From: an uncultured Rhodospirillaceae bacterium
GTDB lineage: Bacteria; Pseudomonadota; Alphaproteobacteria; UBA9219
DNA length: 64,000 nt
Reading direction: 5' to 3'
Assembly (NCBI GenBank): GCA_964390005.1
Contig: CAYMGM010000003.1
Location: 14,271-78,270 of the forward strand
The notes below the pieces were generated by a model that was not told where the DNA came from, searched no databases, and saw only the letters and a program-made list of their open reading frames with translations. Position 1 is the first letter of the stretch. Each line of letters starts with the position of its first letter. Below, one piece after another: positions 3,721 through 32,177 of the stretch. The translations under genes were made by a program, and so were the position numbers.

Positions 3721-3900
3721 GCCGGGACAAGAAGCGGCAAAGCTGGGCCAGGGCGTTACGATGAAGGACGGCGATGGCCTGAGCGTGACGTTGCACTATG
3801 ATGCCGAGTTGAAAGATCGCTATGTCGGCCATGCCGGGATCCTTCAGGCGCGGTACGATTTTTGATCGGATATCGCCTGATACGATCTTTTCTTTATAAG

Positions 3901-3941
3901 AACGGGCGTTTGCACTTTCCCTGCAAACGCCCGTTTTGTTG
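3901..3941 (+). terminator. Perfect 14-bp inverted repeat hairpin followed by T-rich tract (terminator-like or regulatory)
   Basis: aacgggcgtttgca-ctttccc-tgcaaacgcccgtt then ttgttgg; lies in the divergent region between the otsB remnant and adh. Confidence 0.35.
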
Positions 3942-4161
3942 GTAAGGGATCATGCGCGCGCCGATCCTTTGGTGTATGGCCTTGTGTTGTTTTGTTTTTC
4001 GATCTCTTCGAACGGCATCATATCTTGATGATGTACAAATCGACCCAGGACGGCTAGACTGGTCCTTCGGACTTAACCTTGTCCCTTTCTTCTACGTTCC
4101 TTTCTGCATGCCAAAGATCGCCAAAAGAGCGATCCCATCATTCTAACAAGGAGGATCTGTC

Positions 4162-5205
4162 ATGAAAGCTCTCGTCTATGAAGGCCCCGGCAAAAAAGCC
4201 CTGAAAGAATGCCCCAAGCCGCAAATCAAAGATCCGGGCGACGCGATTGTGCGCCTGACCAAAACGACGATATGCGGGACCGATCTTCATATTTTGAAAG
4301 GCGACGTCGCGACATGCGCGCCGGGCCGCATTTTAGGGCATGAAGGCGTCGGCGTTATCGACAGCGTTGGGGCTGCCGTAACAAACTTCCGCCCGGGCGA
4401 CCGTGTGTTGATCTCTTGTATTACGGCCTGTGGTCATTGCGATTTTTGCCGCAAAGGCATGTTCTCGCATTGTAAAACGGGCGGTTGGATTTTAGGCAAC
4501 GAGATCGACGGCACGCAAGCCGAGTTCGTTCGCACCCCGCATGCCGATACAAGCCTTTACCCTATTCCTGCTGGGGCGGATGAAGAAGCGCTTGTGATGC
4601 TCAGCGACATTTTGCCAACGGGTTTCGAGTGCGGCGTTTTGAACGGCAAGGTCGAGCCCGGATGCAGCGTTGCCATTGTCGGCGCAGGCCCCATCGGCAT
4701 CGCCGCTTTGCTGACGGCGCAATTCTATAGCCCGGCCAAGATCATTATGATTGACCTTGACGACAACCGTCTGGATACGGCCCTGCGTTTTGGGGCGACC
4801 GATAGCGTGAACAGTGGCGACGGCAAAGCCATTGAGAAAGTGATGGCGCTGACGGAAGGGGCTGGGGTGGACGTAGCGATTGAAGCCGTTGGTATCCCGG
4901 CGACTTTCGAGCTTTGCCAAGGCCTGATTGCGCCGGGCGGACGCATTGCCAATATTGGCGTCCACGGGACCAAGGTTGACCTGTACATGGATAAGCTTTG
5001 GGATCGTAACATCACGATCACGACGCGCCTTGTCGATACCGAGACGACGCCGATGTTGCTAAAGACGGTTCAATCGAAAAAGATCGACCCGACGCGGCTT
5101 GTGACGCACCGTTTTAAGCTCAGCGATATTCTGAGCGCGTATGAAACGTTTGGTAAAGCGGCGCAAACGAAAGCGCTGAAGGTGATCATCGAAAATGACC
5201 TTTAA
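4162..5205 (+). CDS. Zn-dependent (MDR family) NAD(P)-alcohol dehydrogenase
   Basis: 347 aa; 'GHEGVGVI', 'CGHCDFCRKG' structural Zn Cys cluster, 'VAIVGAGPIG' Rossmann; RBS aaggagg 7 nt upstream. Confidence 0.85.
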   Translation: MKALVYEGPGKKALKECPKPQIKDPGDAIVRLTKTTICGTDLHILKGDVATCAPGRILGHEGVGVIDSVGAAVTNFRPGDRVLISCITACGHCDFCRKGMFSHCKTGGWILGNEIDGTQAEFVRTPHADTSLYPIPAGADEEALVMLSDILPTGFECGVLNGKVEPGCSVAIVGAGPIGIAALLTAQFYSPAKIIMIDLDDNRLDTALRFGATDSVNSGDGKAIEKVMALTEGAGVDVAIEAVGIPATFELCQGLIAPGGRIANIGVHGTKVDLYMDKLWDRNITITTRLVDTETTPMLLKTVQSKKIDPTRLVTHRFKLSDILSAYETFGKAAQTKALKVIIENDL

Positions 5206-5235
5206 AGACGTCGTTTGAGGTAAACAAAAGAGCGA

Positions 5236-5270
5236 AGGGCTCCGGCGTGGCGCCGGGGCCTTTCTTTTGT
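5236..5270 (+). terminator. Rho-independent terminator after adh
   Basis: ggctccggcg-tgg-cgccggggcc stem followed by tttcttttgt. Confidence 0.55.
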
Positions 5271-5340
5271 CTCATCGGCTTCATAGAGGCATGCGGTTCG
5301 ATTCTTCCCTATTGTGAATGGGCGCTGCACCAAGCCTAAT

Positions 5341-5626
5341 CTTCACCGTCAGCGACGAAACAAATGTTCCGCTTTGCCGAAAAACAGGCCTTTCAGAAGC
5401 AAAAAGCGGCGCTCAAAAAGCGCCGCGAGCTTTTTCAAAGCCAAGACAAGATCGACGCAAGACGCGAAGAGCTTCTGAATCAACGGGAACGGCGACTGCA
5501 GGGTCGTTGGTCTGAGATCAAAAACCTGTTTTGCATCCGGTGGATGTCAACCTATGACCAAAAAGCAAAAGCTGGAATTGACGTTAATTAGGAAGGATCA
5601 GAGGTCTTGGTTGGGGCCTCGGATTT
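5341..5626 (+). repeat. Degenerate copy (~80-85% identity by eye) of SNF2-helicase 3' end (~16383-16405 plus ~16693-16860) fused directly to the mod 5' start (~18200-18285); non-functional relic
   Basis: Translated fragment FAEKQAFQKQKAALKKRRELFQSQDKIDARREELLNQRERRLQ matches helicase C-terminus LAEKLAFQKQKAALEKRRSQKRHELFQSQDKIDARREELINQLERQLQ. This is followed by atgaccaaaaagcaaaagctggaattgacgt, identical to the mod start MTKKQKLELT. Confidence 0.7.
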
Positions 5627-5641
5627 TGCTGGCCTGATCGC
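5627..5641 (+). other. Candidate distal att core: imperfect copy of the tRNA-Ala 3' end region
   Basis: ttgctgg-cctgatcg vs ttggtggacctgatcg at 58670-58686 (tRNA 3' end, reverse strand). Confidence 0.3.
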
Positions 5642-5696
5642 ACTTGATGTGAAGAAATAACTCGTTGAATTAAAATGGAAATCGTTAAGGCAAAAA

Positions 5697-5721
5697 ACCT
5701 ATTACCCCACGATGTTACCCC
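5697..5721 (+). repeat. 25-bp direct repeat shared with 58532-58556 (candidate arm-type integrase site / island terminal repeat)
   Basis: acctattaccccacgatgttacccc vs acctattaccccacgatcttacccc (24/25). Confidence 0.5.
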
Positions 5722-5871
5722 CAATCCCCAAAACGGCCAAAACCACACCAGCTAGCCTTCGAACCAAGGACCATCATTCAACTTAAAAGGGAGATTAGCA
5801 CGAAACATCTACGCTCACAAACGACCAATCTTTGTTGCTCGTAGAAGTCCTTACAAACAACCAAGCCCCTC

Positions 5872-6690
5872 TTAAAGGCTTCTCTGTCCCGGTTTGGGTG
5901 TCGGCAATCCAGCGTGTCTTTGTTTGTTGTCGGGACGGAAGGCTGAAAACCCGTTGGGATCAAGCTCTGGCGCTACCTTTTCACCAAAAACGAAAAGAAG
6001 GTCTCGGTTTAGGCATGCTATTTGTTTTGGGCTCAGCGACCATTTTTCAAACAGCTGCGTCCTGAACGAGATCAAGCGTTCGTAATTGTTGGGATGAAGT
6101 TTGCCTTCGCCGACTTCGATGCATCGATTGAGCCAGTAACTATGCGTGTACGCAAGCATCAGCGAACGATAGCCAAACTTGCTTGATTGAACTGCAGGCG
6201 CGTTCATAAAATTGATAACAGCACGCGTTTCTCCAACGGTCAGCGATCCGGATTTGAGAAGAGCGCGGTACATCCAGGAAATCATATCGCGCTCGAGACC
6301 AACAAATCCTTGGGCTGGGAGCTTCTCTGCTCTGAGCATGACATATTCGACGGCGCTTAGATATTCGCTGTCCCTGTTTTTTTCGCCGTTGTCTGGCGTG
6401 AGTTCTGTTTCTGGTTTTCCGTTCGGAGAAGACGGTTTCTTGGGATTCTTTTTGAGACCAAGTTTGGTATAATCTTGAAATCCTTGTTTTGGAACAATAC
6501 CCCATTTCTTACCGCAGGAAGGTCCCGCTGGAACTTCGCCATAAACCGGATGTCGTAGGATCAAGGCGATGCCTGTCGGAAGATCGCGGGGGCAGAAAGC
6601 GCATTCAGCGACCGTAACGAAATCACGCCGTAAAAGAGGAAAGGCATGTTCGTTCAGGTTCGAGGTATCGATTAAAGGTTTATGAGCCAT
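5872..6690 (-). CDS. Hypothetical protein (AT-rich cargo)
   Basis: 272 aa ORF in a visibly AT-rich segment at the island's left end; no motif recognised. Confidence 0.45.
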   Translation of the reverse strand: MAHKPLIDTSNLNEHAFPLLRRDFVTVAECAFCPRDLPTGIALILRHPVYGEVPAGPSCGKKWGIVPKQGFQDYTKLGLKKNPKKPSSPNGKPETELTPDNGEKNRDSEYLSAVEYVMLRAEKLPAQGFVGLERDMISWMYRALLKSGSLTVGETRAVINFMNAPAVQSSKFGYRSLMLAYTHSYWLNRCIEVGEGKLHPNNYERLISFRTQLFEKWSLSPKQIACLNRDLLFVFGEKVAPELDPNGFSAFRPDNKQRHAGLPTPKPGQRSL

Positions 6691-6840
6691 TTTCGTGATG
6701 TCTTTATAAAATCCCGGATCCGGCTCATCCTAAATATCCCGAACGCTCTTTTTCAAGAGGATATCCTATTGGTTTCATAGAAAAAACTGCTTAATATCGG
6801 CGTTTGAATCGTATAACGCTTTATTCCAGCAAGGAAAATC

Positions 6841-7893
6841 ATGCCGCGTGTTGACCTTTGTGTCCCTTTTTCTGAAAAGGATGAAGCGAAAAAACTTGGC
6901 GCACGGTGGGATGCTGCGCACAAAGTTTGGTTTGTTCCCGAGGGGCTTGCGGCGGCACCTTTTGTACGCTGGCTGCCTGTGCCGGATGATGAGCCATCGG
7001 AGGTCCACATCACGCAACCGACCTCTTTCGATCATCCTGTTGTGCGGTACGATCCCGAACTGCCGGACGATCTTTTCAGCCCTCGACGCATCGCATCAAC
7101 GCAGGAAATTGCTGATTGCTTCTGGCAGGACGGTCGCCTTTTTCTGCTTCCGGTTCCCAAGGAAGATCAGGACCGTATTTTGGCCGCCGGAGCGCAACAA
7201 GGAGGCGGGGGCCTCTTTATAGGACGCGGGACTAATATTGATTTTGCCGCGTTAAACCCGTTTCTTCCTTTCGTCGGCAAATCCATCATCATGCCGCGCC
7301 TTGGAGATCTGATCCCCGCATCATCCTTTGGGGCCAATCTCTGCAATCTTCTGACGCGCCCCTCCTGGGACAAACTGCGGCAACGGACATTCGCCGAAAC
7401 AGATGGACGGTGTGAAATTTGCGGCTCGACCGAGCATCTGGAATGTCATGAATACTGGAAATATTTCGAGCCTCTGCCGCTCTATCTGGAAAAAGGAGCC
7501 TGTGGCGTTCAAAAGCTTGCTCGGCTTATGCCTCTTTGCGCTGCCTGTCATGAAACCTATCATCTGGGACTTGCCAACGTGCGAGGCCGATTTGAAATCG
7601 TCCGGGCACGCCTTCGCGCGATGAATCGCTGGACGGAAGAAGAGTATGCCGATTATGGAGACTTTCTTGATGAGCGCAGCGCGCGGCGCACCGAATGCTT
7701 CTGGGTTTTAGATTTTTCAGAACTGAAGGAAAGCACGCTTTCAGTCCACGACAAGTGGCGTTTGCGCCAGGATGGCTTTCTTGTCTGTAACACGCAGACA
7801 GGAACAACGGAAACCATGATCCTTGGCATTCCTTGGGAACACAGGGGCCAATCGCATGCGTTAATGGATCCCGTCATTGCGTACTACGAATGA
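6841..7893 (+). CDS. DUF5710-like N-terminal domain plus HNH-type nuclease motif protein
   Basis: 350 aa; N-terminal 'VPFSEKDEAKKLGARWDAAHKVWFVP' resembles the DUF5710 module seen at the C-terminus of TraC-type primases. Central 'CEICGSTEHLECHEYW...CAACHETYH' is HNH-like. Confidence 0.6.
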   Translation: MPRVDLCVPFSEKDEAKKLGARWDAAHKVWFVPEGLAAAPFVRWLPVPDDEPSEVHITQPTSFDHPVVRYDPELPDDLFSPRRIASTQEIADCFWQDGRLFLLPVPKEDQDRILAAGAQQGGGGLFIGRGTNIDFAALNPFLPFVGKSIIMPRLGDLIPASSFGANLCNLLTRPSWDKLRQRTFAETDGRCEICGSTEHLECHEYWKYFEPLPLYLEKGACGVQKLARLMPLCAACHETYHLGLANVRGRFEIVRARLRAMNRWTEEEYADYGDFLDERSARRTECFWVLDFSELKESTLSVHDKWRLRQDGFLVCNTQTGTTETMILGIPWEHRGQSHALMDPVIAYYE

Positions 7894-8161
7894 ACTGCTC
7901 AGTAAAAATGCACTCAATCTTTTGTCATGTGACCATTTCTGACCCATTGTGGCCCTATAAAGACAACAACATTTCCTAATTTGGTGTTTCGGAGGGGCGG
8001 ATGGATCGGGAACGGAATGCTCCCTTGCAGCCGATGGCGGACGACAGGGCGTACAAACCGGAGTTCGTTATCGTCTTCAGCGCATTGGCTATCTGCGGGG
8101 CTCTGGTTGGATTCTTGGTTGGTTATCTTTATCGATAACACAAAGGAGGCTTGGGGGCGTT

Positions 8162-11100
8162 ATGCGGAGAGACGAAGGAACAGGGCGTATTTTCTATGCG
8201 CCGACGGATTTGGTGACATATCTTGAATGTCCCTTTGCCACGTTGTTCGATCTTCAACAAACGCTTCACCCCATCAAACTTGCCAAGAGCGAAGACGATA
8301 GCGCGAAGCTTCTTGAACAAAAGGGGCTGGAACACGAACGGCACTATCTTGAACAGCTTCGGCGCGAGGACCTCTCAGTCGTCGAGATCCCGTCGAATAT
8401 TTCCATTCCTCGACGGATCGAGATGACGCGTGCGGCGCTGAAGGCAGGTCCTGATGTGATTTATCAAGCGGCGCTTGGCGACGAGGTTTGGACAGGGTTT
8501 GCCGATTTTCTTTTGAAAACAGACCGGCCTTCGGGGCTGGGGGCGTTCAGCTATGAAGTTGCCGACACGAAACTCGCCCTTTCGCCAAGGCCGGAGTTTG
8601 TCGTTCAGCTTTTTGTCTATTGCGAGCTTTTAGCCAAGGAGCAGGATCTCGTTCCACGCGATCTGCACATTGTCTTGGGCGACAAGAGCAAGGTTTCTTT
8701 GCGCCTCGACGATTTTCGCTATTATCAGAAACTGGCGCAGGAGCGGTTTCTCTCTTTCGTTGAAAAAGGACATATGCCGCAGCCGGGCGAACCTTGCGCC
8801 CATTGTGACAAGTGCCGTTGGTTGAGTCTCTGCGAAGAGGAATGGGAGCGCACGGAACATCTTTCTTTTGTCGCGAATATTCGGGGCGAGCAGATCAAGA
8901 AACTCCGCCGCGCCGGGATCAACAGCATGCGCGATCTTGCAGCCCTGCCGGAGGGGCAGTCCGTTCCAAAAATGGCGCCTGAAACGCTGGCGACATTACG
9001 TGAGCAAGCACGTCTTCAGATCGCCAAAAAGGATGATGGCGAGAATCGCTGTGTTCTTTTGCCGTTTGCCCTGCATAAGGGACTTGCGCGTCTCCCTAAG
9101 CCCAATGAGGGCGATCTTTTCTTCGATATGGAGGGCGATCCGTATTACGACAATCCCCGCCTTGAATATCTCTTTGGCTTTGTTCTTTTGAATGAGCAAA
9201 AAGAGGACGTGTTCAAACCGTTTTGGGCGCATGATCGCGCGGCAGAAAAGAAGGCGTTTGAGGACGTGATGGATTTCATCATGGCGCGGCTTGAAGCCTA
9301 TCCCGACGCCTATATCTATCATTATGCGGCTTATGAAGAGACGGCGCTCAAGAATCTTGCCATGTATCACGGCACGCGCGAGGCCGAGGTCGATCATCTT
9401 TTGCGCAATCGCAAGCTTGTCGATCTTTACAAAGTTGTGCATGAGGGCATCCGCGTTTCCGAACCGCGCTACTCGATCAAAAATCTTGAGCATTTCTATG
9501 CGGAAAAGCGCGGCGGCGAGGTCAAGACAGCGGGCGACAGCATCGTTATGTACGAAAAATGGCGCGTGTTACAGGACGATACCATCCTTCAGGAAATAGC
9601 CGATTACAACGAGTTCGATTGCCGTTCGACCCTGCAATGCCGGGATTGGCTGCTAACCCTCAGACCGGAGGAGATGGATTGGTTTGCGCCTTACACAGAC
9701 GATGCGGAGGCGCGGGAGAACGAGGCAAAGCGTCGAGAAGCAGAAGCGGCGACGGCACAGCTTGCCGCGAACCTGACAAACAGCGTTTCGGAACAGGAAG
9801 CAGCATGGCGCGGTCTTTTAGGGCAGCTCTTGACCTTTCACCGACGTGAAGCAAAGCCGGGATGGTGGGCCTTCTTCACGCGGCGCGATCTAACGGACAA
9901 GGAGCTTATCGACGACGCGGAATGCCTTGGAAAATGTGAACGCGATATATCAGCGCAACCCTATAAACTCGGCCCACGTGACAGGTCTCTGGTTTACGAA
10001 TACAGGTTTCCGCCCCAAGACACAAAAATGCGAGAGGAGTATGATCCGGTCAATGCCTTCACCGGCAAGCGGATCGGTAAGATCGTTGGCCTTGATCGAA
10101 AAGGCGGCAAGGTTGCCCTTAAAATCGGAGACAAGCAGGCAAACCCGCCCGATCTTCTTTCGCTTATCCCGCAGAAACCGATTGAAAATAACGATATTCG
10201 TGGGGCCATCGGACGCTATGCCGAGGCTGTTGCAAGCGGAAGCGTCTCGCGTTACGCGGCCATTACGAGCATCCTGCGCCGTGATTTGCCTCGCCTTTCG
10301 GGGAGGGCTGAGGGGGCAAGCATACTTGGGCAAGGGGATGACACAACGTCGGCCTGTATCGATGCGGTCGGACGCCTCGACAACAGCCATTTGCTGATCC
10401 AAGGTCCGCCCGGAACGGGGAAGACCTATACCTCGTCTCATGCGATTGTTGCCCTTTTGAAGGCTGGAAAACGTGTCGGCGTTGCCTCGAATGCGCATAA
10501 GGCGATCAACAATTTGTTGGAGGCTGTTGAGAAGGAAGCCGAAAAACAGAACGTCAGATTCCGAGGCGTCAAAAAATGCACATATGACGATCATGCGCTT
10601 GCCAGCCGAGGGTTTATCGAGAACACGACAGACCTTAAACAGGCCGAAAGCGGCGGCTATAGCCTTGTCGCAGGCACGGCGTGGCTCTTTTCGCGCGTAG
10701 CGTTTGATCAAACGCTAGATTATCTCTTCGTTGACGAGGCAGGACAAGTCAGCCTCGCCAATGTCGTCGCAATGGGAACGGCGGCGCGCAATATCGTGCT
10801 TGTCGGCGATCAGATGCAGCTTGCTCAGCCAATCCAAGGCGCCCATCCGGGGCAATCCGGCCTTTCGGCTTTGGAATATCTTTTAGGGGACGCGGCAACG
10901 GTTCCGCCCGAACGCGGTATTTTTCTTGCCACGACGCGCCGCATGCATCCAGCCTTGTGCGGTTTTATCTCTGCCGCCGTTTATGAGGGCAAACTGCTTC
11001 CCGAACTCGACAATGCGCGCCGCCATCTTGTGGTGAACGGGCCGGAGGAAGATGAGGCTATTGTTCCGGCAGGCATTCGGTTTATCGAGGTTGAGCACGA

Positions 11101-11584
11101 AGGATGTTCGCAAAAAAGCGAAGAGGAAGTGGAACGTTTAAAAGCCACCTATGATCGCTTGCTTGGCATGAAGTGGGTGGATGAGACCGACGAGGAGCAT
11201 GTGATCGGCAAGGAAGATATCCTTGTCGTCTCGCCCTACAACATGCAGGTCAACGAGCTGCAAAAAGCGCTTGGCCCCGACGCGCGTGTCGGCACGGTGG
11301 ATCGTTTTCAGGGGCAGGAAGCGCCCGTTGTTTTGATCTCGATGGCGACATCGTCAGGCGAGGAGCTTCCGCGCGATATCGAGTTCCTTTTCAGCCGCAA
11401 CCGCCTGAACGTGGCCATCAGTCGCGCAAAATGTTTGGCCGTCCTTTACGCCAACCCGCGTCTCCTCGAAATCCCCTGCAGCACCATCGACCAGATGCGC
11501 CTTGTCAATACGCTTTGCTGGGTTCGTGCTTATGCGCATGCGTTCGGTGGGGGAGAAGTGGTAATTAGCGCGGCAGTGGCTTGA
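8162..11584 (+). CDS. Nuclease-helicase fusion: Cas4/RecB-like PD-(D/E)xK nuclease with Fe-S Cys cluster, TM0106-type RNaseH-like domain, C-terminal Upf1/Dna2-like SF1 helicase (Nhi-like defence candidate)
   Basis: 1140 aa; 'EVADTKL' D-x-K, 'C..CAHCDKCRWLSLC' 4-Cys cluster, 'FFDMEGDPYYD' DxE, Walker A 'LIQGPPGTGKTYT', 'VDEAGQ' motif II, 'VDRFQGQE' motif V/VI. Confidence 0.75.
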   Translation: MRRDEGTGRIFYAPTDLVTYLECPFATLFDLQQTLHPIKLAKSEDDSAKLLEQKGLEHERHYLEQLRREDLSVVEIPSNISIPRRIEMTRAALKAGPDVIYQAALGDEVWTGFADFLLKTDRPSGLGAFSYEVADTKLALSPRPEFVVQLFVYCELLAKEQDLVPRDLHIVLGDKSKVSLRLDDFRYYQKLAQERFLSFVEKGHMPQPGEPCAHCDKCRWLSLCEEEWERTEHLSFVANIRGEQIKKLRRAGINSMRDLAALPEGQSVPKMAPETLATLREQARLQIAKKDDGENRCVLLPFALHKGLARLPKPNEGDLFFDMEGDPYYDNPRLEYLFGFVLLNEQKEDVFKPFWAHDRAAEKKAFEDVMDFIMARLEAYPDAYIYHYAAYEETALKNLAMYHGTREAEVDHLLRNRKLVDLYKVVHEGIRVSEPRYSIKNLEHFYAEKRGGEVKTAGDSIVMYEKWRVLQDDTILQEIADYNEFDCRSTLQCRDWLLTLRPEEMDWFAPYTDDAEARENEAKRREAEAATAQLAANLTNSVSEQEAAWRGLLGQLLTFHRREAKPGWWAFFTRRDLTDKELIDDAECLGKCERDISAQPYKLGPRDRSLVYEYRFPPQDTKMREEYDPVNAFTGKRIGKIVGLDRKGGKVALKIGDKQANPPDLLSLIPQKPIENNDIRGAIGRYAEAVASGSVSRYAAITSILRRDLPRLSGRAEGASILGQGDDTTSACIDAVGRLDNSHLLIQGPPGTGKTYTSSHAIVALLKAGKRVGVASNAHKAINNLLEAVEKEAEKQNVRFRGVKKCTYDDHALASRGFIENTTDLKQAESGGYSLVAGTAWLFSRVAFDQTLDYLFVDEAGQVSLANVVAMGTAARNIVLVGDQMQLAQPIQGAHPGQSGLSALEYLLGDAATVPPERGIFLATTRRMHPALCGFISAAVYEGKLLPELDNARRHLVVNGPEEDEAIVPAGIRFIEVEHEGCSQKSEEEVERLKATYDRLLGMKWVDETDEEHVIGKEDILVVSPYNMQVNELQKALGPDARVGTVDRFQGQEAPVVLISMATSSGEELPRDIEFLFSRNRLNVAISRAKCLAVLYANPRLLEIPCSTIDQMRLVNTLCWVRAYAHAFGGGEVVISAAVA

Positions 11585-11624
11585 AGGGCAAAGGATTTTA
11601 GACGTTTGTTATCAGGAAAGACTC

Positions 11625-12503
11625 TCAGTTTTTTTGTGCTTCACTCGAAGAAGAAAGGTATTTTTGGAAGAAGCCATCAGGAGCATCGTGTTCTGCACAA
11701 CAATAGGCGCGCTCCGCAGCTTGTGAAACAACTTCGCGGTTAACCCGTTTTACAATATCGCTGGGGGCGGATGCCAACAGAAGCCTCTTCGCTTTTGAGT
11801 CAGGCTTGAAGGCGAAAAAGATATGGCGTGGCGTTAGCGGTAGAACAATTACACAATTCGGATCATTTAGGCCCGTCGTAAATAGACAAGGTCTATCTGA
11901 TGTTAAAATACGGTTAGACGCATGGAATGCGTCCATCAAGAACCAATCCATCGACAAAATATCGCTTAAAACGTTTGAATTCGAAATGATTTTAGGAAGT
12001 TGTTTAACGCCAATATTTTCGATAAGCGCAGGGTGGTTTATTTCTACCCAGTCTTTCAGACTTTCGGGTACTTCCCCATTTAATGAGGTTGAGTCTGGTG
12101 AGCTCTTGCCTTCAAGATAATCTGAAAATTGATCGCGGAGTGTTGTTTTGATTCTTGTTACAGTTTCCGGATTTCTGATTTTCATGCTCGAGATAAATTG
12201 AGCCCATCGGATCTTTTCTTTTTTGGTTAAAGGGGCGCCCGAGATAAACTTTGCTTTTATTTCCGCTCCTGCATTATCGATCGGTTTAAAAAACCTCGTT
12301 TCAATCTCAGATCTATCTGAGGCATGAAATGCTTTTGAATATGCATATAGAAAATCCCTATACCCCGTTCCTTTGGGGGCTTTCTGTCTTTTTGAAATTA
12401 TCCCGTCAAAATTTCTAATTTCCCAAAGCTCATGGGTTCCATGTGCTACCCATGATTTCAGGTAAAACTGCGGAACAAAGTGGTGCTTCGTTGAAGTTGC
12501 CAT
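11625..12503 (-). CDS. DUF4238-like protein (defence-island associated family); true start at internal Met
   Basis: Starts MATSTKHHFVPQFYLKSW, which is the HxVPxFYL signature I associate with DUF4238; AGGA RBS 9 nt upstream; the long N-terminal extension in the ORF track is rejected. Confidence 0.6.
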   Translation of the reverse strand: MATSTKHHFVPQFYLKSWVAHGTHELWEIRNFDGIISKRQKAPKGTGYRDFLYAYSKAFHASDRSEIETRFFKPIDNAGAEIKAKFISGAPLTKKEKIRWAQFISSMKIRNPETVTRIKTTLRDQFSDYLEGKSSPDSTSLNGEVPESLKDWVEINHPALIENIGVKQLPKIISNSNVLSDILSMDWFLMDAFHASNRILTSDRPCLFTTGLNDPNCVIVLPLTPRHIFFAFKPDSKAKRLLLASAPSDIVKRVNREVVSQAAERAYCCAEHDAPDGFFQKYLSSSSEAQKN

Positions 12504-12550
12504 TATAATTTTTCCTGCTTGATATCGATTTGAAGCATGATGTCTTTTGG

Positions 12551-13540
12551 TTACGGTAGTCCATCCCATTTCCGCTGTGCGCCAGTCACCATCTTTCGGA
12601 GCGCCGACGGTTTTATCACTTCGACCTGATCGCCCCACATGTAGAGGTGCCATGTCATTTCCAAGAGCCCGCCCGCGCGGAAACGCACGATGAGCGCGCC
12701 ATCCTTTTTCTCTTCCGTTTTCTGGTTTGGATGAAAGACAAACTCTCTCGCGGCTTGTGCCGCCTTGGGCGTGAACTTCCAGACGATGTCTTGTGGTTTC
12801 TCCATCCATACGCCGAAGGATTGGTCGGCATAGGCCTGAAGATCGAACGTAGGATCGCGATGAAAGCCGTCTTTCGTGACGGTAACGCTTTCAATTTGCG
12901 AGAGGATGAAATGATACCGCGCGGCCTCGCGGCCTTTTTCGGTTCCGCCGCCGACTAGATAGTGCCGGTGGCCATAGAGAAAGCCATAGGGCGCAACGCG
13001 CTTTATCTCGGCTTGCGGTTTGCCCTTTGCATGATAGAGAATCTCGACAATCTTGCAGGCTTTGATCGCTTCGCGAAGCGCATGCAGGTGCTCGGCATTC
13101 AATTTAGGCCGGGGGCCGGGGCGCGTGGCAAGACCTTCGGCTTCGATCAGTGCTTCAAGGTCAGGTTCAACCCGGCGCGAGACGTCGCATTTCTGAAGCG
13201 TTTTGATCTTTCCGCAAAGCGACCGCAGAGCCTTCGCTTGCAAACCAAGCCCGCGTCCAGCAAAGGCCTTCGTCGCCATATCAAGGCTGGCCAGCTCGTC
13301 CGGCGTCAAGGCTAAATGCCGCCCGTTGGTCGAGGACGGGATCCGCCAACGTTTGATCCTGTTTTCATCCGTTGTCTCATCGACCTGCGGATAAACGCGC
13401 ACCACGGCATCGCGCATGCGCATGGCCGTGCGGCGGGAGACGTCAAACATATCGATGATTTCCGTGAGGGTGACACCTTCGGCATTCGACTGCATGGCAA
13501 ACGCGAGGTTCAGTAGGTCTTCGGCTTTTTCGAAACGCAT
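12551..13540 (-). CDS. WYL-domain transcriptional regulator (HTH-WYL-WCX; BrxR/CapW-like)
   Basis: 'GVTLTEIIDMFDVSRRTAMR' wHTH; WYL domain 'PYGFLYGHRHYLVGG'; C-terminal WCX-like 'WHLYMWGDQVEVIKP'. Start taken at MRFEKAEDLL. Confidence 0.75.
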   Translation of the reverse strand: MRFEKAEDLLNLAFAMQSNAEGVTLTEIIDMFDVSRRTAMRMRDAVVRVYPQVDETTDENRIKRWRIPSSTNGRHLALTPDELASLDMATKAFAGRGLGLQAKALRSLCGKIKTLQKCDVSRRVEPDLEALIEAEGLATRPGPRPKLNAEHLHALREAIKACKIVEILYHAKGKPQAEIKRVAPYGFLYGHRHYLVGGGTEKGREAARYHFILSQIESVTVTKDGFHRDPTFDLQAYADQSFGVWMEKPQDIVWKFTPKAAQAAREFVFHPNQKTEEKKDGALIVRFRAGGLLEMTWHLYMWGDQVEVIKPSALRKMVTGAQRKWDGLP

Positions 13541-13826
13541 CGACAATCCCCAACAAAAACACTGGGGAAGAGCCTGCCACAAGTGATCCGGTTGGCCAAG
13601 AGCGCATGTGACCGGAATTGTCATGTCCGGGTGCTAGAATAGAAAGCGTTAACAGAGTGGTGTGCCATGAAGCCATTAAAACTTGTCCCGTCAAAAGGTC
13701 TTGAAATGCTTTTGAGTGCATTCGGCATTCTGGGGACTATGGAGGCGAGAAAGACCAAAAAAGCCAAATACACGAACTATATCCTTGTCTATGGCCCCGA
13801 TAATAAGGTCCAAACTGTTGAAACCA

Positions 13827-13954: not shown

Positions 13955-16891
13955 ATGAGGGCGCAAAACGAACAAATCGAGACAGGCGGAGGCGGAAACA
14001 AAACACCCATATCCCCTTATCATGCCAAATATTTTGCGCACGAGATTTCGACCAAGAAATCCGCCGCTGCCGTTGATCGCCTGACAACCTCGCTTTTCGA
14101 TGCCGCCGTTGATTTAAACCCCCATCAGATTGAGGCCGCCCTTTTTGCCCTTCGCTCCCCCTTATCCAAGGGCGTTATGCTGGCCGATGAAGTCGGTCTC
14201 GGCAAAACCATTGAGGCGGGTATCCTGCTTTGCCAAATGTGGGCCGAGCATAAGCGGCGCTTGCTTGTCATTTGCCCAGCCGTTTTGCGCCGCCAATGGT
14301 CGATAGAGCTTGAGGAAAAGTTCAACCTGCCGACGCTTGTGCTGGAAGGCAGTAATTATGCCGAGCGCAGCCAAGCAGGCGATCCCTTCGATTTCAAAGG
14401 CGTCGTCATTATTTCCTACCAGTTCGCGAACCGCTGCGCCGACGAGCTTAAGGCCGGGTTATGGCATTTGGTCGTGATCGACGAAGCCCACAAACTGCGA
14501 AATCTGTTCAAAAAAGACAACAAGATGGGCCGCACGATCCAAGCGGCCTTGGCCGATCACAAAAAGGTCCTTCTTACGGCCACACCTTTACAAAATTCGC
14601 TCATGGAGCTTTACGGCCTCGCCTCGCTGATAGACGAGCGCATCTTTGGCGGGATTGATACGTTCCGCACGGCCTATGTCAACGGGACGCCCAATATAGA
14701 TGATCTCAAAGACCGCCTTGCGCCCTTTGTCCAACGCACCCTTCGGCGACAGGTTTTGGAATATATCCGCTATACACGCCGCGAAGCGGTTACCCAGCCT
14801 TTCAGGCTTTTGGGTGACGAACAAAAACTCTATGACGAAGTCTCTGACTTCCTGTTGCAGCAAGATACCTACGCCATCCCATGGGCGCAAAGAAAGCTGG
14901 TCGTTCTTATTGTTCGCAAGCTTCTGGCGTCTTCCTCTTATGCCCTGATTGGAACGTTAGAGACGATCAAGGCGCGGCTGGAACGTATGCGGGAAACGCG
15001 GCGCGAGGAAAAGTTGAACCTGCGCACCGCCTTTGTCGCCGGGCAAGACATTGATATCGAATATGCCGAAGCAGGAGAGGAGGAAGGGCCCCAGCCCACG
15101 CCCCAGCGCAAGGAAATCGACCTCGAAAAGTTGGCCTATGAAATCGAACAAATCGAAGGTTTCATCGCCCTTGCGCGCTCGATCCGGATTGAAACAAAAG
15201 CCAAAGCGCTTCTCACAGCCCTGCAAACCGGCTTTGCCCGTATGGGGGAACTTGGCGGCGCGCGCAAAGCCCTTGTCTTCACGGAATCCAGTCGCACGCA
15301 GCGTTGCCTGAAGGACTATCTGGAAGACAACGGCTATCGCGGCAAGATCGTGACATTCAACGGCCAGAACACAGACGATCTTGCGAAGGATATTTACGCC
15401 CATTGGCTCAAAAAGAACGCCGAAACAGGCCGCGCCACGGGATCGAAAAACGTCGATATGCGCATGGCCTTGGTCGATTTCTTCCGCGACCGTGCCGAAG
15501 TGATGATCGCGACCGAGGCCGCCGCCGAAGGCATCAACCTTCAGTTCTGTTCGCTTATCGTCAATTACGACCTGCCTTGGAACCCGCAACGCATCGAACA
15601 GCGCATTGGCCGCTGCCATCGTTACGGGCAAAAGCACGATGTCGTCGTCATCAACTTCCTGAACCAAGACAATCTTGCCGATCAACGCATCTATGAATTG
15701 CTGAAAGAGAAGTTCCAGCTTTTCGACGGCGTCTTTGGCGCATCAGACGAGGTTCTAGGCCGCGTCGAATCCGGCATCGATTTCGAAAAGCGTGTGCTAG
15801 AGATTTTCGAGACCTGCCGCAAACCGGAAGAAATTGAACAAGCCTTCGTCGATCTTCAGGCCGAGATGGAAGAGCCAATCCAAAGCCGCATCGCCGAAAC
15901 GCGCACTCTGTTGTTCGAGCATTTCGACGAAGATGTCACCAAACACCTGAAGTTCAGCATGGAGGCGACAAAACAGCGCCTCGATACCGTCACGCACCAT
16001 TTCTGGGAGCTGACAAAGTTCGTCTATGCAGACCAGTTTTTCTTCAACGACGAAAAGCTGATCTTCGGCGACGATGCCGCCTTCATCGCGCGCGGCGAAA
16101 GGCCGGAAGGGGGCGAACATACGCCCATCTTCCACTATCTGGAAACGCGGCAGGGCGAGGTCAAAACAGGTCTGTCCGGCCAGCCCTATCGCATGGCGGG
16201 CCCGATGGGCGAGGCCGCCCTTCAAAAAGGGCGCGCGATGGAGACGCCACCCGCCGCGCTGGCCTTTGATTTTGCCTCATACCCCCACAAAATCGCCCTT
16301 TTGGAAGAACAAAGCGGCAAGCGCGGCTGGCTTTGGTGCGACAAGCTGACAATCAAAACGTTCGAGGAAACGGAAAGCCTGATCTTCACCGTCTGCGACG
16401 AAAATGGTGCGATCCTGCCGCCCGCGTTCGGCGAAAAGCTTTTCCTTCTATCGGCCACCAACGAAGGGGCCTTGGCCCCATGCCCCCACCAAAACGCGGT
16501 CGAAGCCGCGCGCGCGTCCAGCATCGAAGCCAGTCTGAAAGAATCGGAAATCAGCAACCACAGCTATTTCGAGGAAGAGCTGGATAAGCTCGACCGCTGG
16601 GCCGAGGATCTGAAAACGGGCCTAGAGATGGAGCTGAAACAGCTCGACCGCGACATCCGCGAGGCTGCCCGTCAATCGAAACAGAGGGTCAGCCTTGCCG
16701 AAAAGCTGGCTTTTCAGAAGCAAAAAGCGGCCCTCGAAAAACGCCGCTCCCAAAAACGCCACGAGCTTTTCCAAAGCCAAGACAAGATTGACGCAAGGCG
16801 CGAAGAGCTTATTAATCAATTAGAACGGCAACTGCAGGATAGCAGGCATGAGGTGGTGCCGCTGTTTTGCGTGGGATGGAGGGTTTCGTGA
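13955..16891 (+). CDS. SNF2/RAD54-family helicase (DISARM DrmD-like)
   Basis: 978 aa; motif I 'ADEVGLGKTIEAG', 'VVIDEAHKLRN', 'LLTATPLQNSLMELY', C-lobe 'IATEAAAEGINLQ...NYDLPWNPQRIEQRIGRCHRYGQ'. Confidence 0.85.
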   Translation: MRAQNEQIETGGGGNKTPISPYHAKYFAHEISTKKSAAAVDRLTTSLFDAAVDLNPHQIEAALFALRSPLSKGVMLADEVGLGKTIEAGILLCQMWAEHKRRLLVICPAVLRRQWSIELEEKFNLPTLVLEGSNYAERSQAGDPFDFKGVVIISYQFANRCADELKAGLWHLVVIDEAHKLRNLFKKDNKMGRTIQAALADHKKVLLTATPLQNSLMELYGLASLIDERIFGGIDTFRTAYVNGTPNIDDLKDRLAPFVQRTLRRQVLEYIRYTRREAVTQPFRLLGDEQKLYDEVSDFLLQQDTYAIPWAQRKLVVLIVRKLLASSSYALIGTLETIKARLERMRETRREEKLNLRTAFVAGQDIDIEYAEAGEEEGPQPTPQRKEIDLEKLAYEIEQIEGFIALARSIRIETKAKALLTALQTGFARMGELGGARKALVFTESSRTQRCLKDYLEDNGYRGKIVTFNGQNTDDLAKDIYAHWLKKNAETGRATGSKNVDMRMALVDFFRDRAEVMIATEAAAEGINLQFCSLIVNYDLPWNPQRIEQRIGRCHRYGQKHDVVVINFLNQDNLADQRIYELLKEKFQLFDGVFGASDEVLGRVESGIDFEKRVLEIFETCRKPEEIEQAFVDLQAEMEEPIQSRIAETRTLLFEHFDEDVTKHLKFSMEATKQRLDTVTHHFWELTKFVYADQFFFNDEKLIFGDDAAFIARGERPEGGEHTPIFHYLETRQGEVKTGLSGQPYRMAGPMGEAALQKGRAMETPPAALAFDFASYPHKIALLEEQSGKRGWLWCDKLTIKTFEETESLIFTVCDENGAILPPAFGEKLFLLSATNEGALAPCPHQNAVEAARASSIEASLKESEISNHSYFEEELDKLDRWAEDLKTGLEMELKQLDRDIREAARQSKQRVSLAEKLAFQKQKAALEKRRSQKRHELFQSQDKIDARREELINQLERQLQDSRHEVVPLFCVGWRVS

Positions 16892-17718
16892 GGATTGTTT
16901 GGAAAACCATAATTGATTTTTGGTTGGCCTCACTAGACGTAGTGACTATCTGGGTTCAGCCTGTGCTGGTTGGGGTGAGCGTTCTTGCAAGTGCTTTTTT
17001 AACTTATGATTTTTCTCATGTTTACTCGTATGTTCCAAGTTGGAAGCATCAGATTGATCTACTCAGATCGGCCCTTCCCATTACGCTAGTGTTGACCCAA
17101 GTCTTCCTGTTGGCTGTGTCCATTTTTCAGGGAATTAGGCAATGCTCAATTCGCAAGTTGAAAAAACAAGTGGATGAATACAGAGAAAAAATAAATATCA
17201 TTGCAAGCAATGTTGAAACGCTTGTTGATGGTATATTGTTGAGATTGGCGGAAAAGCTAAAATTGGACAAAGGAGATCCATCGCGGCTAACAATTTATAT
17301 CCACAACAGCAATGGACACTTTATTTCCTTCGGACGGTACTCCCCAGACCCATCTCTGAATGAAAAGGGAAGGAGCCTGCTGCCTGACAACGCGGGGTGT
17401 ATATCTCAGGCGTGGAAGAGTGATTGGTGTTATGAGGGGAATTTGAGTTCTAAAGATTGCCGCCAAAAATACAAAGTTGAGCAGTCCGTTGTTGATGGAT
17501 TGAGAATGAAATCAAGGTTCTATGCCGTTAAAAGAATTGACTCATCAAACAAGCGACCTTTGGCTGTCGTTGTTTTTGAATCTGTCACCGCAAACAAGTT
17601 TGACGAACAAAAAATCAGAAACCTTCTGAACGGAGAAGAAGCATATCTAGCAGAGATAATCGATTGTCTGAAAGAGCATATTCCTAACCCGCAAGATGCG
17701 CAGAAATGGGGGTTCTAA
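16876..17718 (+). CDS. AT-rich membrane protein: 2-3 N-terminal TM helices plus cytoplasmic domain (PanT-like toxin candidate)
   Basis: ATG overlaps the last codons of the SNF2 gene; hydrophobic stretches 'VQPVLVGVSVLASAFL' and 'ALPITLVLTQVFLLAVSIF'; markedly lower GC than neighbours. Confidence 0.6.
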   Translation: MEGFVRIVWKTIIDFWLASLDVVTIWVQPVLVGVSVLASAFLTYDFSHVYSYVPSWKHQIDLLRSALPITLVLTQVFLLAVSIFQGIRQCSIRKLKKQVDEYREKINIIASNVETLVDGILLRLAEKLKLDKGDPSRLTIYIHNSNGHFISFGRYSPDPSLNEKGRSLLPDNAGCISQAWKSDWCYEGNLSSKDCRQKYKVEQSVVDGLRMKSRFYAVKRIDSSNKRPLAVVVFESVTANKFDEQKIRNLLNGEEAYLAEIIDCLKEHIPNPQDAQKWGF

Positions 17719-18206
17719 TGACCGCACTTAAAGACATCATTGCTTATGTGTGTAAGACCTATCCTTCGAACTTGCAGGATGAGTTGTCAAATGCACGTGT
17801 CACCAAAATGATTTACCTTGCTGATTGGAGGCAAGCGATCGAACATGGGCGCCAGATTTCAGATATTGACTGGTTCTTCGACAATTACGGGCCTTACGTT
17901 GATGATGTGAGGAAAGAAGTTGCTGAAAACAATTCGATTTTTGACCTTCAGCATGTTCAGAATATGTACGGGCAGCCAAAGAACCTGATTAAGCTTAAGG
18001 ATAAGAACTATGCGCCGTCCCTTTCTGATGATCAAAAGAAGTCAATTGATCATGTTATTGAAATGACTAAAAAAATGTATTGGGACACATTCATCAAGCT
18101 CGTTTATTCAACATATCCCATAACTTCTTCAGAAAGGTATTCGCATCTCAATTTGCTTGAGAAGGCTTCTGAATATAAGGCTCAGAAAGAAGAAAAAGCA
18201 CCATGA
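17706..18206 (+). CDS. Panacea-domain (DUF4065, SocA/PanA-like) protein, putative antitoxin
   Basis: 'TKMIYLADWRQAIEHGRQISDIDWFFDNYGPYVDDV' matches the DUF4065 core (LqKLlYfa.gw......pLf...feAw.yGPV). Alternative start ATG 17718 overlaps upstream TAA (TAATG). Stop overlaps mod ATG (ATGA). Confidence 0.6.
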   Translation: MGVLMTALKDIIAYVCKTYPSNLQDELSNARVTKMIYLADWRQAIEHGRQISDIDWFFDNYGPYVDDVRKEVAENNSIFDLQHVQNMYGQPKNLIKLKDKNYAPSLSDDQKKSIDHVIEMTKKMYWDTFIKLVYSTYPITSSERYSHLNLLEKASEYKAQKEEKAP

Positions 18207-19888: not shown

Positions 19889-20415
19889 GCAATCTTATTG
19901 ATGGGCTAGCTTTGGTCGTTGCGCTGGGATCAGCTGTGGTTTCTTGTTTATCTGCGGGAGCTGCAAAGGCCTCCGCAGACGCTGCAAAAATCTCTGCGGA
20001 GGAAACGAAGAAACAACGAAAGATTAGCCAATATGTGACATTGTCCCCCCATTTTTTTGCTGTAAGCCAGATTCTTTCAGCCCTAAGCGATGGAAAGGAA
20101 ACACCGAAGCGTCTTCTTGCGGCAAGAGACTCTCTTGTCTTTTTAAAGAAAGCTTTACCAAAGGACGAAGAGCTAATTGCCGTTGTCAATGAGATCGAAT
20201 ACAGATTTGAAGAGACGATCTCCGATGGCATTACAACCTTTAGAAGTCATTTAGTAAATTACCCAGCAAGGGAGACTGAGGATAACTTTGCTCAATTCAA
20301 TCTCGATCATAACGTCGATAAGGATCCAACTAAAAAAAGATTTAAAATTGCGCAACTAAAGGAAATGCTGTCGATGATTGAAGGAAGATATATTTCTTTG
20401 GATGACACCCCATGA
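19885..20415 (+). CDS. Small membrane-anchored protein of unknown function inserted between mod and res
   Basis: ATGA overlaps with both the mod stop and the res start; N-terminal TM helix 'LIDGLALVVALGSAVVSCLSAGAA'; AT-rich. Confidence 0.55.
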   Translation: MSNLIDGLALVVALGSAVVSCLSAGAAKASADAAKISAEETKKQRKISQYVTLSPHFFAVSQILSALSDGKETPKRLLAARDSLVFLKKALPKDEELIAVVNEIEYRFEETISDGITTFRSHLVNYPARETEDNFAQFNLDHNVDKDPTKKRFKIAQLKEMLSMIEGRYISLDDTP

Positions 20416-23680: not shown

Positions 23681-24520
23681 ATGCCCGAGACCGCTGTGTC
23701 CGGCCTGCGGCCGTGCGTCGACTGGCGCAATGCCGAAGATTATCGCCATCTTCTGGATTATGACCGCGCCGGATGGGCTGGCGAATGGCTCAGGCGCAAT
23801 CCGGCTTTTGTTGCCGATGTCCATCGTGCGCCCCATTATTCGGATGCGTTCCGCTTCGGCTCTGATCTGGATGTTGCCATCATAGATGGAGGGAAAGATA
23901 CATCGTTAGCGCGTTGGGGATTGCACGGTATTTGCCCAGGGACTGAGCCGCTTTTCTTCTGGCGTCCGGAGGTCAATGCGCAGGTTCTGACGCTTGAAGC
24001 CAAAAAGGCAACGAACGAAGCCGAGGGGCTCGACCTGCGTCAATGTACTTTGTTTAAGGCGGCGTTTCGCGGCGCGGATCAAGATACGCATCTTCTGTTT
24101 GGGGACGGCGTCCGGACGCTGCAGGTCGTCGTCAAGGGCGATGTTTCCTTTGAAAGCCCCATGAACTTTCGGTGCGCCTTGTCCGGTTGGAGCGAGTTTG
24201 AGACCAAGCCATTGAGCTTACGTCGGTTGTGTTGTCTTTACAGGCTGGGACGTCTTTCCAGTTCCCTTTATCCCAAGGAGCAACGGGCCCATCGCTGGGT
24301 CGAAATGATCCGTGCATGGGACGGCGTTCAGGCCGGGGCCAAGCAACGCGATATTGCCATCGCTATTTATGGCGATCGCGCGGTGCGTGAAGATTGGGAT
24401 TCAGGCTATCGCACCCGTGTGCAAAGATTGATCCGTTCATCGGAACGGATGGTCGGCGGCGGTTATCTGGACCTTCTGCGTAGCGGCAGCGGAGACACGG
24501 CGCACAAAGGCGCTTTATGA
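23681..24520 (+). CDS. DUF2285-family protein (ICE leading-region regulator-like)
   Basis: 279 aa; matches my recollection of the DUF2285 proteins that open alphaproteobacterial ICE backbones. Confidence 0.6.
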   Translation: MPETAVSGLRPCVDWRNAEDYRHLLDYDRAGWAGEWLRRNPAFVADVHRAPHYSDAFRFGSDLDVAIIDGGKDTSLARWGLHGICPGTEPLFFWRPEVNAQVLTLEAKKATNEAEGLDLRQCTLFKAAFRGADQDTHLLFGDGVRTLQVVVKGDVSFESPMNFRCALSGWSEFETKPLSLRRLCCLYRLGRLSSSLYPKEQRAHRWVEMIRAWDGVQAGAKQRDIAIAIYGDRAVREDWDSGYRTRVQRLIRSSERMVGGGYLDLLRSGSGDTAHKGAL

Positions 24521-27539: not shown

Positions 27540-27543
27540 AGCC

Positions 27544-32174: not shown

Positions 32175-32177
32175 GCC

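Follow-up and report, generated by a model that had tools for sequence, protein, structure and literature searches.

A 64,000-nt stretch of DNA from an uncultured Rhodospirillaceae bacterium (assembly GCA_964390005.1, contig CAYMGM010000003.1, positions 14,271 to 78,270; hereafter the window, always at its full length) carries at 8162-11584 on the forward strand an open reading frame (ORF) with an ATG start that encodes a TM0106/COG2251-family nuclease-exonuclease-helicase of 1140 amino acids (aa). Judged from its sequence, the product is a single-polypeptide, Dna2-like enzyme that joins a Cas4/RecB-type nuclease, a DEDDy exonuclease and a superfamily 1B (SF1B) helicase, all three activities being predicted, and the promoter of the gene carries a predicted operator for a DriD-type WYL regulator that is encoded two genes downstream. 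The gene is accessory cargo in the defence region of what looks like a Trb-type integrative conjugative element of ~53 kb. The best reading of this locus, which we hold with moderate confidence, is that the enzyme is a single-stranded DNA (ssDNA)-inducible, RecBCD-like destroyer of foreign DNA.

Profile searches placed the protein clearly within the TM0106/COG2251 family. The NCBIfam model TIGR03491 ('TM0106 family RecB-like putative nuclease') matched aa 15-497 with an E-value of 1e-81 and 275.3 bits, against a cut-off of 97.45, and the match covered positions 4-462 of the 462 in the model. The gene is preceded by a ribosome-binding site, AAAGGAGG, at 8142-8149, 12 nt 5' of the ATG, and its product can be divided into five regions, all encoded on the forward strand. 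Profiles, motifs and Foldseek identified aa 1-235 (8162-8866) as a Cas4/RecB/Dna2-type PD-(D/E)xK 'iron-staple' nuclease, with weak matches of the PADLOC and NCBIfam Cas4 models at aa 111-225. A helix-hairpin-like linker (aa 236-295) precedes a DEDDy 3'-5' exonuclease fold (aa ~296-505; 9047-9676), which was recognized from Pfam, motifs and Foldseek and which includes the Pfam match to RNase_H_2 (PF13482) at aa 319-497 (E = 7.8e-25). The helical stalk and beta-barrel that follow (aa ~506-727; 9677-10342), identified from the secondary structure of the AlphaFold2 model and from the match to Dna2, would occupy the place of the Upf1/Dna2 stalk and barrel. The C-terminal part is an SF1B helicase core of the Upf1/Dna2/IGHMBP2-like kind (aa ~728-1130; 10343-11551), on which Pfam, motifs, phmmer and Foldseek agree and over which AAA_11, AAA_12, AAA_30 and AAA_19 of Pfam matched aa 738-1095.

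Residue conservation was read from an alignment of 100 full-length homologues. The nuclease residues D115, D135-T136-K137, Q149 and Y153, which form the RecB/Cas4 motifs, were invariant, as were the cysteines C23, C215 and C218, and C212 and C224 were kept in at least 90% of the homologues. These cysteines show the iron-staple spacing C23 ... C215-x2-C218-x5-C224, flanking nuclease motifs I-III and the QhxxY motif, and the N-terminal nuclease is predicted to hold an iron-sulphur (Fe-S) cluster. The complete DEDDy set (D322-x-E324, D421 and Y482-x3-D486) was likewise invariant. The helicase motifs include a Walker A sequence, GPPGTGKT, at aa 748-755 (GPPGxGKT in the homologues) and DEAGQ at aa 858-862. 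The nearest solved structures found by phmmer were IGHMBP2, Upf1 and Dna2, and no sequence relative of the N-terminal half was found in the PDB.

The AlphaFold2 model of the whole protein had a mean predicted local distance difference test score (pLDDT) of 90 and a predicted template modelling score (pTM) of 0.86. The best PDB match found by Foldseek was mouse Dna2, aligned over the whole length (5ean, 5eaw and 5eax; E ~4e-28, ~1240 columns) with TM-scores of only 0.36-0.39, and the next matches were IGHMBP2, Upf1 and Sen1. When the N-terminal half was modelled separately (pLDDT 93), its first domain resembled the Dna2 nuclease, Cas4 (8d3l, 4r5q) and the Argonaute-associated Cas4-family enzyme ACE1, and its second domain resembled the MrfB, RNase T and PolC exonucleases. 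An earlier note on this DNA had described a 4-Cys Cas4/RecB-like PD-(D/E)xK nuclease, a TM0106-type RNase H-like exonuclease with a DxE motif and an Upf1/Dna2-like SF1B helicase. The profile matches (the profile search proposed in that note returned AAA_11 and AAA_12 and, weakly, Cas4), the invariant motifs and the structural matches bear on each of the three domains, and the domain description is therefore correct.

The family itself and this combination of domains were already known. A 2014 survey of the RNase H-like superfamily recorded that COG2251 unites PF13482 with a DUF83-like PD-(D/E)xK domain and with AAA domains in tandem, and grouped PF13482/COG2251 with the 3'-5' exonucleases, an activity that was predicted there (PMC3985635). 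The literature searched contained no functional study of the TM0106/COG2251 family and no paper placing it in defence or in a WYL/DriD regulon; the links of the family to DriD, to defence islands and to McrBC appear to be new.

The regulator gene lies at 12551-13540 on the reverse strand (a public gene call on the identical contig, supported by a PDB match) and encodes a protein of 329 aa with winged helix-turn-helix, WYL and WCX domains. This protein aligned over its full length (aa 1-319) with DriD of Caulobacter crescentus (PDB 8tp8 and 9pfq; E ~4e-60, 37% identity). It was also 35-41% identical over the full length to the WYL proteins encoded divergently beside the helicase homologue in ten other loci (L003, L005, L027, L028, L031, L037, L046, L049, L076 and L077 in our numbering), with which it shares a subfamily; with the WYL protein of L001, the closest locus, the identity reached 75%. 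By these alignments it is an orthologue of DriD and the cognate regulator of the TM0106 helicase family. DriD is a transcription activator that responds to ssDNA in an SOS-independent damage response (PMC9186387, PMC13004042), and its optimal site, ATACGAC(X)7GTCGTAT, overlaps the -35 element at a fixed distance from the -10 element (PMC13004042).

Comparison of WYL-helicase intergenic regions revealed a common box, GAC-N7-G(T/A)C, followed after 11 nt by a CTAT/TTAT -10-like element. The window holds two such arrangements, both on the forward strand. Operator 1, CATGT-GACCATTTCTGAC (GAC-N7-GAC; 7931-7943), faces the helicase gene, and the -10-like element CTATAAAG (7955-7962) stands 11 nt after it. 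Operator 2, CATGT-GACCGGAATTGTC (13610-13622), lies between the start of the WYL gene and a neighbouring operon for an SNF2 helicase and type III restriction-modification (R-M), faces right towards that operon and is followed at the same distance by CTAGAATA (13634-13641). The extended pattern GACN6TGNCN11YTA has exactly these two sites in the 64 kb when both strands are counted, against 0.39 expected, and two of 100 shuffled sequences reached two sites. These counts rest on the corrected pattern; the form GACNNNNTTNTGWC is off-register and misses both window sites. A scan of the window for promoter and terminator consensus sequences gave counts at the level of shuffled sequence.

Both operators are retained in the orthologous loci L001 and L087 despite divergence of the surrounding intergenic sequence: operator 1 is kept upstream of the helicase gene in L001 (9908) and L087 (7734), and operator 2 is kept as ATGTGACCGGAATTGGC in L001 (15781) and as GTGACCGAATCTGAC in L087. 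For a wider comparison, ORFs were called in 74 genome loci that encode a helicase homologue, and the six neighbours on each side were clustered. The relaxed box was enriched 10-fold at positions -400 to +60 of the helicase gene over the rest of these loci. The extended pattern was found directly upstream of the helicase gene in L001, L024, L028, L037, L046, L049, L057 and L077, and the box, the 11-nt spacing and the -10-like element thus occur upstream of the helicase gene in the window, in L087 and in those eight loci (at least nine besides the window). L024 and L057 carry the operator pattern with no WYL gene within six genes.

The same arrangement is seen in the published sequence of the CCNA_03891 promoter of C. 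crescentus, namely GACCGTTTCTGTC, 11 nt and ACAATCTT (PMC13004042), and the geometry of the window operators equals that of the promoters solved with DriD and RNA polymerase, as compared with the same study. This DriD-like promoter geometry predicts activation of both the helicase gene and the rightward R-M operon. The WYL regulator would act as an activator rather than as a repressor, and ssDNA would be its inducing signal. The earlier note had reported a WYL regulator as a neighbour and a defence-island setting, and both are borne out by the annotations of the adjoining genes and by profile matches; the orthology with DriD and the operators ahead of the helicase gene had escaped it.

The family is very widespread. 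More than 3600 database proteins matched the 1140-aa protein, and the top 120 homologues were all 1108-1174 aa long, with 53-70% identity and at least 98% query coverage. The N-terminal module was found in 1674 clusters at 50% identity (E <= 1e-30), most of which contain proteins of ~1110-1180 aa. Full-length homologues overall showed 39-70% identity, with copies at 39-54% identity in Proteobacteria (Alpha-, Beta- and Gammaproteobacteria among them), Actinomycetota, Chloroflexota, Melainabacteria, Gemmatimonadota, Planctomycetota and Acidobacteria. Full-length copies were also present on at least 59 plasmids, and of the 76 plasmid records with a match, 28 are conjugative. None of the phage records encodes the N-terminal module, a result that is neutral with respect to a role in defence. 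Conserved housekeeping synteny was not found in the 74 genome loci, on the plasmids or in nine annotated contexts, and the gene is accessory and patchy across phyla. A housekeeping Dna2/RecB protein with fixed synteny, the alternative against which the earlier note had set its defence proposal, is ruled out by these variable neighbourhoods; the best homologues are accessory genes in variable, defence-rich contexts or in plasmids and integrative conjugative elements (ICEs).

Several kinds of genes recurred beside the helicase homologues. WYL/WCX regulators were near the helicase homologue in 22 of the 74 loci and immediately upstream in at least ten, mostly in divergent orientation. Genes for an McrB-like AAA_5 protein and for McrC were located directly downstream on the same strand in 8-9 loci, with gaps of 0-16 bp or overlaps between the three genes, which may form a type IV-restriction-like operon of helicase homologue, McrB-like protein and McrC. 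The McrBC-linked loci come from different classes (L012, L016, L024, L029, L045, L068, L076 and L077, with L046 on the other strand), and their McrB-like proteins are 700-1200 aa long; a survey of CoCoNuT and McrBC systems makes no mention of a Cas4 or TM0106 partner. RmuC was a neighbour in seven loci and operonic in 5-6 of them, which suggests that it is a second recurrent operon partner; in L006, L011, L012, L066 and L072 its gene and that of the helicase homologue are immediate neighbours on one strand, 5-50 bp apart. Pairs of Metallophos and SMC-like proteins were found near the helicase homologue in 4-5 loci, and type I HsdR was also recurrent.

When the 119 immediate neighbours were examined with PADLOC, the matches included 11 WYL regulators, several methyltransferases, DUF499 and PDC candidates and, among others, single cases of HmaC, REase III, SngA, dGTPase and ThsB. 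In the nine annotated contexts of closer relatives, genes of defence type or of mobile genetic elements (MGEs) were present without exception; they include an Eco57I-type methyltransferase with T5orf172/ResIII, two cases of Bil-like ubiquitin systems, GmrSD, MZB and SNF2 helicases, Vsr/HNH/Dcm, and VapBC with an integrase. The Bil-like genes are directly beside the helicase homologue in L083 (Phenylobacterium plasmid pA; multiubiquitin, E2, ThiF-E1 and DUF6527 genes at 4600-7957) and in L085 (Caulobacter sp.; BilA, BilB and BilD genes at 3890-6734).

A mechanism can be proposed in which the polarity of the enzyme, its substrates and the anti-phage or anti-plasmid outcome are taken by analogy from Dna2, Upf1, DriD and Bad, a DNA2-like helicase-nuclease of G. 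stearothermophilus. Replication of a phage or plasmid, entry by conjugation or breakage of DNA would lead to a build-up of ssDNA, which would bind the WYL regulator; the regulator would then activate the SNF2/type III R-M operon at the same time as the helicase promoter. The enzyme would load on ssDNA or on single-strand/double-strand junctions and translocate 5'-3', while the Cas4-like nuclease would cut the tracked strand and the DEDDy exonuclease would remove the 3'-ended complementary strand. Foreign DNA, whether linear or replicating, would in this way be destroyed in both strands, much as by RecBCD, alongside the co-regulated restriction operon.

Several observations weigh against this interpretation. 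No experiment ties any TM0106-family protein to resistance against phages or plasmids. The PADLOC run proposed in the earlier note did match the helicase core (Mokosh MkoA/MkoC, DpdJ), but no model beyond that core was matched. Ordinary metabolic genes account for many of the immediate neighbours of the homologues. The pattern that defines the operators is degenerate, and its 13-nt core alone has four sites in the window against 1.3 expected, of which the two intragenic ones (16160 and 19427) were treated as chance. Of the four residues with which DriD contacts ssDNA, one is identical in the window WYL protein (Y192); the replacements of W206 by F and of Y240 by W are conservative, and that of R207 by I is not. 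In Caulobacter, DriD controls a DNA-damage response (didA, recA, recJ, bapE and dnaG) and not defence (PMC9186387). The analogies to Dna2, AddAB and MrfAB, and the RmuC and SbcCD-like neighbours, would fit repair equally well.

These points lead to the main rival explanation, which has a considerably smaller but still substantial probability: a DNA-damage-response enzyme of the DriD regulon, carried by MGEs, that would act in the resection or clean-up of broken or gapped DNA, like AddAB, RecJ or Dna2, and would have no role in immunity. The cognate regulator is an orthologue of DriD, whose regulon, as far as it is known, is made up of damage-response genes, the closest fold is that of Dna2, and the exonuclease domain resembles the repair exonuclease MrfB; the operonic RmuC genes in 5-6 loci and the Metallophos and SMC-like pairs in 4-5 loci are also in agreement with repair. 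However, a distribution that is patchy and often plasmid- or ICE-borne is at odds with this explanation, as is the presence of McrBC within the helicase operon in 8-9 loci. Restriction, Bil, GmrSD and DISARM-like genes adjoin the helicase gene in most of the inspected contexts, and the second operator of the window regulator is directed at a type III R-M operon. In C. crescentus, the operon that runs divergently from driD (CCNA_03891/CCNA_01149) was considered as a candidate for encoding a TM0106 enzyme and was rejected; the CCNA_01149 product belongs to the TonB-dependent transporters (PMC12340889), which also speaks against repair. Papers on WYL regulons in Acinetobacter/Moraxellaceae and a paper on SiwR, which were consulted for this point, name no TM0106-type enzyme.

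It is improbable, in our estimation, that the enzyme is a component of an obligate multi-gene module, in which it would require the WYL regulator together with a gene in the slot between the two and/or the SNF2/type III R-M genes (elsewhere McrBC or RmuC). One layout does recur in four orthologous loci, those of the window, L001, L087 and P0005, with the helicase gene, one or more genes on the opposite strand, the WYL gene and a divergent operon; McrB/McrC or RmuC genes share the operon in other clades, and Bad is always a neighbour of a type III Mod-like methyltransferase (PMC7430649). On the other hand, no partner except WYL was present in more than ~13% of the loci, and 45 of the 74 loci have no WYL, McrBC or RmuC gene within six genes. 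The content of the slot also differs between the orthologous loci, which is the opposite of what is expected of an obligate partner. In the window the slot (11585-12550) holds a gene for a 292-aa DUF4238 protein (11625-12503, reverse strand), located between the helicase and WYL genes and downstream of the latter on the same strand; in L001 (13417-14724) it holds a gene for a 435-aa protein of no known kind, in L087 (11428-12612) genes for 232- and 143-aa proteins, and in the P0005 locus three small genes. Because the slot genes differ in the four loci while both flanks and the operators are conserved, the slot is suggested to be a swappable cassette that is co-transcribed with the regulator. 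A DUF4238 protein from a P2 prophage hotspot conferred strong T7 resistance in E. coli (preprint 10.1101/2021.01.21.427644), and by analogy the DUF4238 protein of the window, for which PADLOC v2 gave no match, may be a second, separate single-gene defence.

The neighbouring defence operon (13955-23066, forward strand), downstream of operator 2, encodes a DrmD-like SNF2 helicase (13955-16891), a 283-aa ORF, a SocA/Panacea-domain protein (17706-18206), a type III Mod (18203-19888) and a type III Res (20412-23066). The DrmD-like protein had a PADLOC E-value of 1.5e-207 and scored 691 bits on DISARM_DrmD_b, below the NCBIfam cut-off of 950, and DrmA, DrmB and DrmC were not detected in a PADLOC scan of ten ORFs between 16867 and 35190; DISARM was rejected as an identification of this operon on both counts. 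Between operator 1 and the helicase gene lies an ORF of 45 aa with a C-terminal transmembrane helix (8001-8138, forward strand; a public gene call on the identical contig), which is probably co-transcribed with the helicase gene. L087, the 62%-identical orthologous locus, has a 52-aa ORF at the same place (7795-7953) with the common end ...GALVGFL.G.LY[RK]*; the small membrane ORF was not found in L001 or in the wider family and is kept only in the nearest clade. By description it recalls DidA, a small membrane division inhibitor.

The surrounding region looks like a ~53-kb Trb-type ICE. A 46-nt direct repeat (5679-5724 and 58514-58559; 78% identity, spacing 52,835 bp) brackets the defence island, a gene for TrbE (46832-49378) and, next to a tRNA-Ala gene (58672-58747, reverse strand), a gene for a tyrosine integrase (57317-58507, reverse strand), and the defence island is for this reason regarded as cargo at the left end of the element. 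To the right of the defence operon, genes were found for a RovC-like regulator, a ParB-like protein, a strawberry-notch-like helicase-methylase and a DUF7146/Toprim protein, followed by those for TrbE and the tyrosine integrase. In G+C content, the helicase and R-M cargo (0.49-0.55 over 1-24000) lies below the ICE backbone (0.58-0.65 over 24000-34000 and 46000-54000), a contrast that is consistent with a different origin of the cargo. A degenerate relic at 5356-5632, just outside the left repeat, joins the 3' end of a drmD-like gene (compare 16677-16852) to the 5' start of a mod gene (compare 18203-18281) at 83-90% identity, without the two small genes (16867-18206) that separate the intact drmD-like and mod genes, a structure that points to an earlier rearrangement or to a second system that has decayed.

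A slightly lower probability than that of a multi-gene module is given to the explanation that the enzyme serves the mobile element that carries it, for example by processing or protecting ICE or plasmid DNA while ssDNA enters by conjugation or afterwards, or by attacking competitors. The position near one end of a Trb-type ICE, beside ParB-like, strawberry-notch-like, Toprim/DUF7146 and DUF5710 genes, would suit a function for the element, as would the occurrence of the family on at least 59 plasmids with conjugative ones among the matching records, and an ssDNA-sensing regulator would fire on conjugative entry. However, many homologues are chromosomal, with no conjugation genes nearby, and association with R-M and McrBC genes is typical of defence cargo; moreover, we know of no establishment function with a nuclease-exonuclease-helicase architecture. 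Membership of the Nhi family, which the earlier note had suggested, is very improbable and is rejected at the family level, since, although the order of a PD-(D/E)xK nuclease and an SF1B-like helicase in one protein is the same and PF09848 gave a sub-threshold match at the Walker A motif (18.7 bits, cut-off 24, aa 744-860 only), the helicase is of the Upf1 type (AAA_11/AAA_12), the nuclease of the Cas4/Dna2 type, a DEDDy domain is present in addition, the size is 1140 rather than 606 aa, and the PADLOC matches up to E = 1 include no model named Nhi.

The preferred reading of the enzyme as an inducible destroyer of foreign DNA can be extended, tentatively and with a probability well short of even, to the origin of the regulatory circuit. 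For DriD-type WYL activators, the ancestral or cognate cargo may be the TM0106 enzymes, and the two would form a widespread, mobile 'ssDNA alarm plus DNA shredder'. The RecBCD-like nuclease-helicase with its three activities, the neighbouring restriction systems and the swappable effector slot would then be switched on only by ssDNA that arises when a phage or plasmid replicates or when DNA enters by conjugation, and what is a chromosomal, SOS-independent damage response in Caulobacter would represent a domesticated relative of an MGE-borne inducible immunity circuit. The TM0106/COG2251 family is very large, with more than 1600 clusters at 50% identity (E <= 1e-30) for the N-terminal module alone, and it is found in many phyla and on plasmids. 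If its members are defence genes, a common single-gene, inducible DNA-degrading system would be added to the known repertoire, and DriD-type activators would extend from DNA repair to whole defence islands on ICEs. If they are repair enzymes, the family would represent a bacterial analogue of Dna2 that spreads horizontally. The predicted promoters and catalytic residues make either possibility directly testable.

Among known systems, Dna2 and Bad resemble the window protein in that a RecB nuclease of the 4-Cys iron-staple type, at the N-terminus, precedes an SF1B 5'-3' helicase at the C-terminus. Dna2 has no DEDDy exonuclease, whereas the central insert of the window protein is a DEDDy domain of the proofreading type with intact catalytic residues. 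Bad has 1245 aa, among them D150 of an Fe-S nuclease and K815 of an SF1B motor that moves 5'-3', and its central domain was reported to be without detectable homology; it is sporadically distributed, always beside a type III Mod-like gene, and was proposed to be a new kind of restriction enzyme (PMC7430649). Compared by motif spacing and published description, Bad appears to be the nearest characterized analogue of the window protein: the D150/K815 spacing is similar to that of D135/K754 here and would imply a large central insert, as far as motif spacing can be compared.

RecBCD and AddAB have a dual role in repair and in the destruction of linear phage DNA, and AddB carries the iron-staple type of nuclease. 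The feature in common with the window protein would be helicase-driven degradation of both strands from a DNA end, as proposed above. The window protein differs in being a single polypeptide with an SF1B motor only, in having a DEDDy domain in place of a second RecB nuclease and in being accessory rather than core. To our knowledge, no Chi-like control is known for its family.

Two named systems were also considered and rejected as identifications. For Mokosh, the MkoA/MkoC matches cover only aa ~830-1100 (the helicase 2A region), and no phospholipase D domain was found in the Pfam scan. For a CRISPR-associated Cas4, TIGR00372 scored 20.5 bits against a cut-off of 65, and the window has no CRISPR locus, as judged from the absence of a match to the Rfam CRISPR direct-repeat families and of a tandem array.

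The Nhi protein SERP2475, 606 aa in length, consists of an HsdR-like PD-(D/E)xK nuclease, a Dda-like DUF2075/PF09848 helicase and a Glyas_Bleomycin-R tail (preprint 10.1101/776245). Nhi and Hna resemble the window protein in combining a PD-(D/E)xK nuclease with an SF1-type helicase in one polypeptide, and they are plausible functional analogues; Nhi degrades phage replication intermediates, and both are activated via the phage single-stranded DNA-binding protein or ssDNA. Nhi is half the size and has no Fe-S cluster, DEDDy exonuclease or WYL control, and what stands of the label 'Nhi-like' is a loose functional analogy, not membership of the family.

With respect to regulation, the closest known modules are those of the WYL regulators DriD, PafBC, BrxR and CapW, which act in DNA damage or in defence. 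The window system shares with DriD full-length orthology of the regulator, the core GAC-N7-GTC and the fixed 11-nt distance to the -10 element, whereas the known DriD targets (didA, recA, recJ, bapE, dnaG, CCNA_02375 and CCNA_03891/CCNA_01149) include neither a TM0106 enzyme nor an R-M system. BrxR and CapW are likewise WYL-type regulators within defence islands; they are repressors, whereas the promoter geometry in the window predicts activation.

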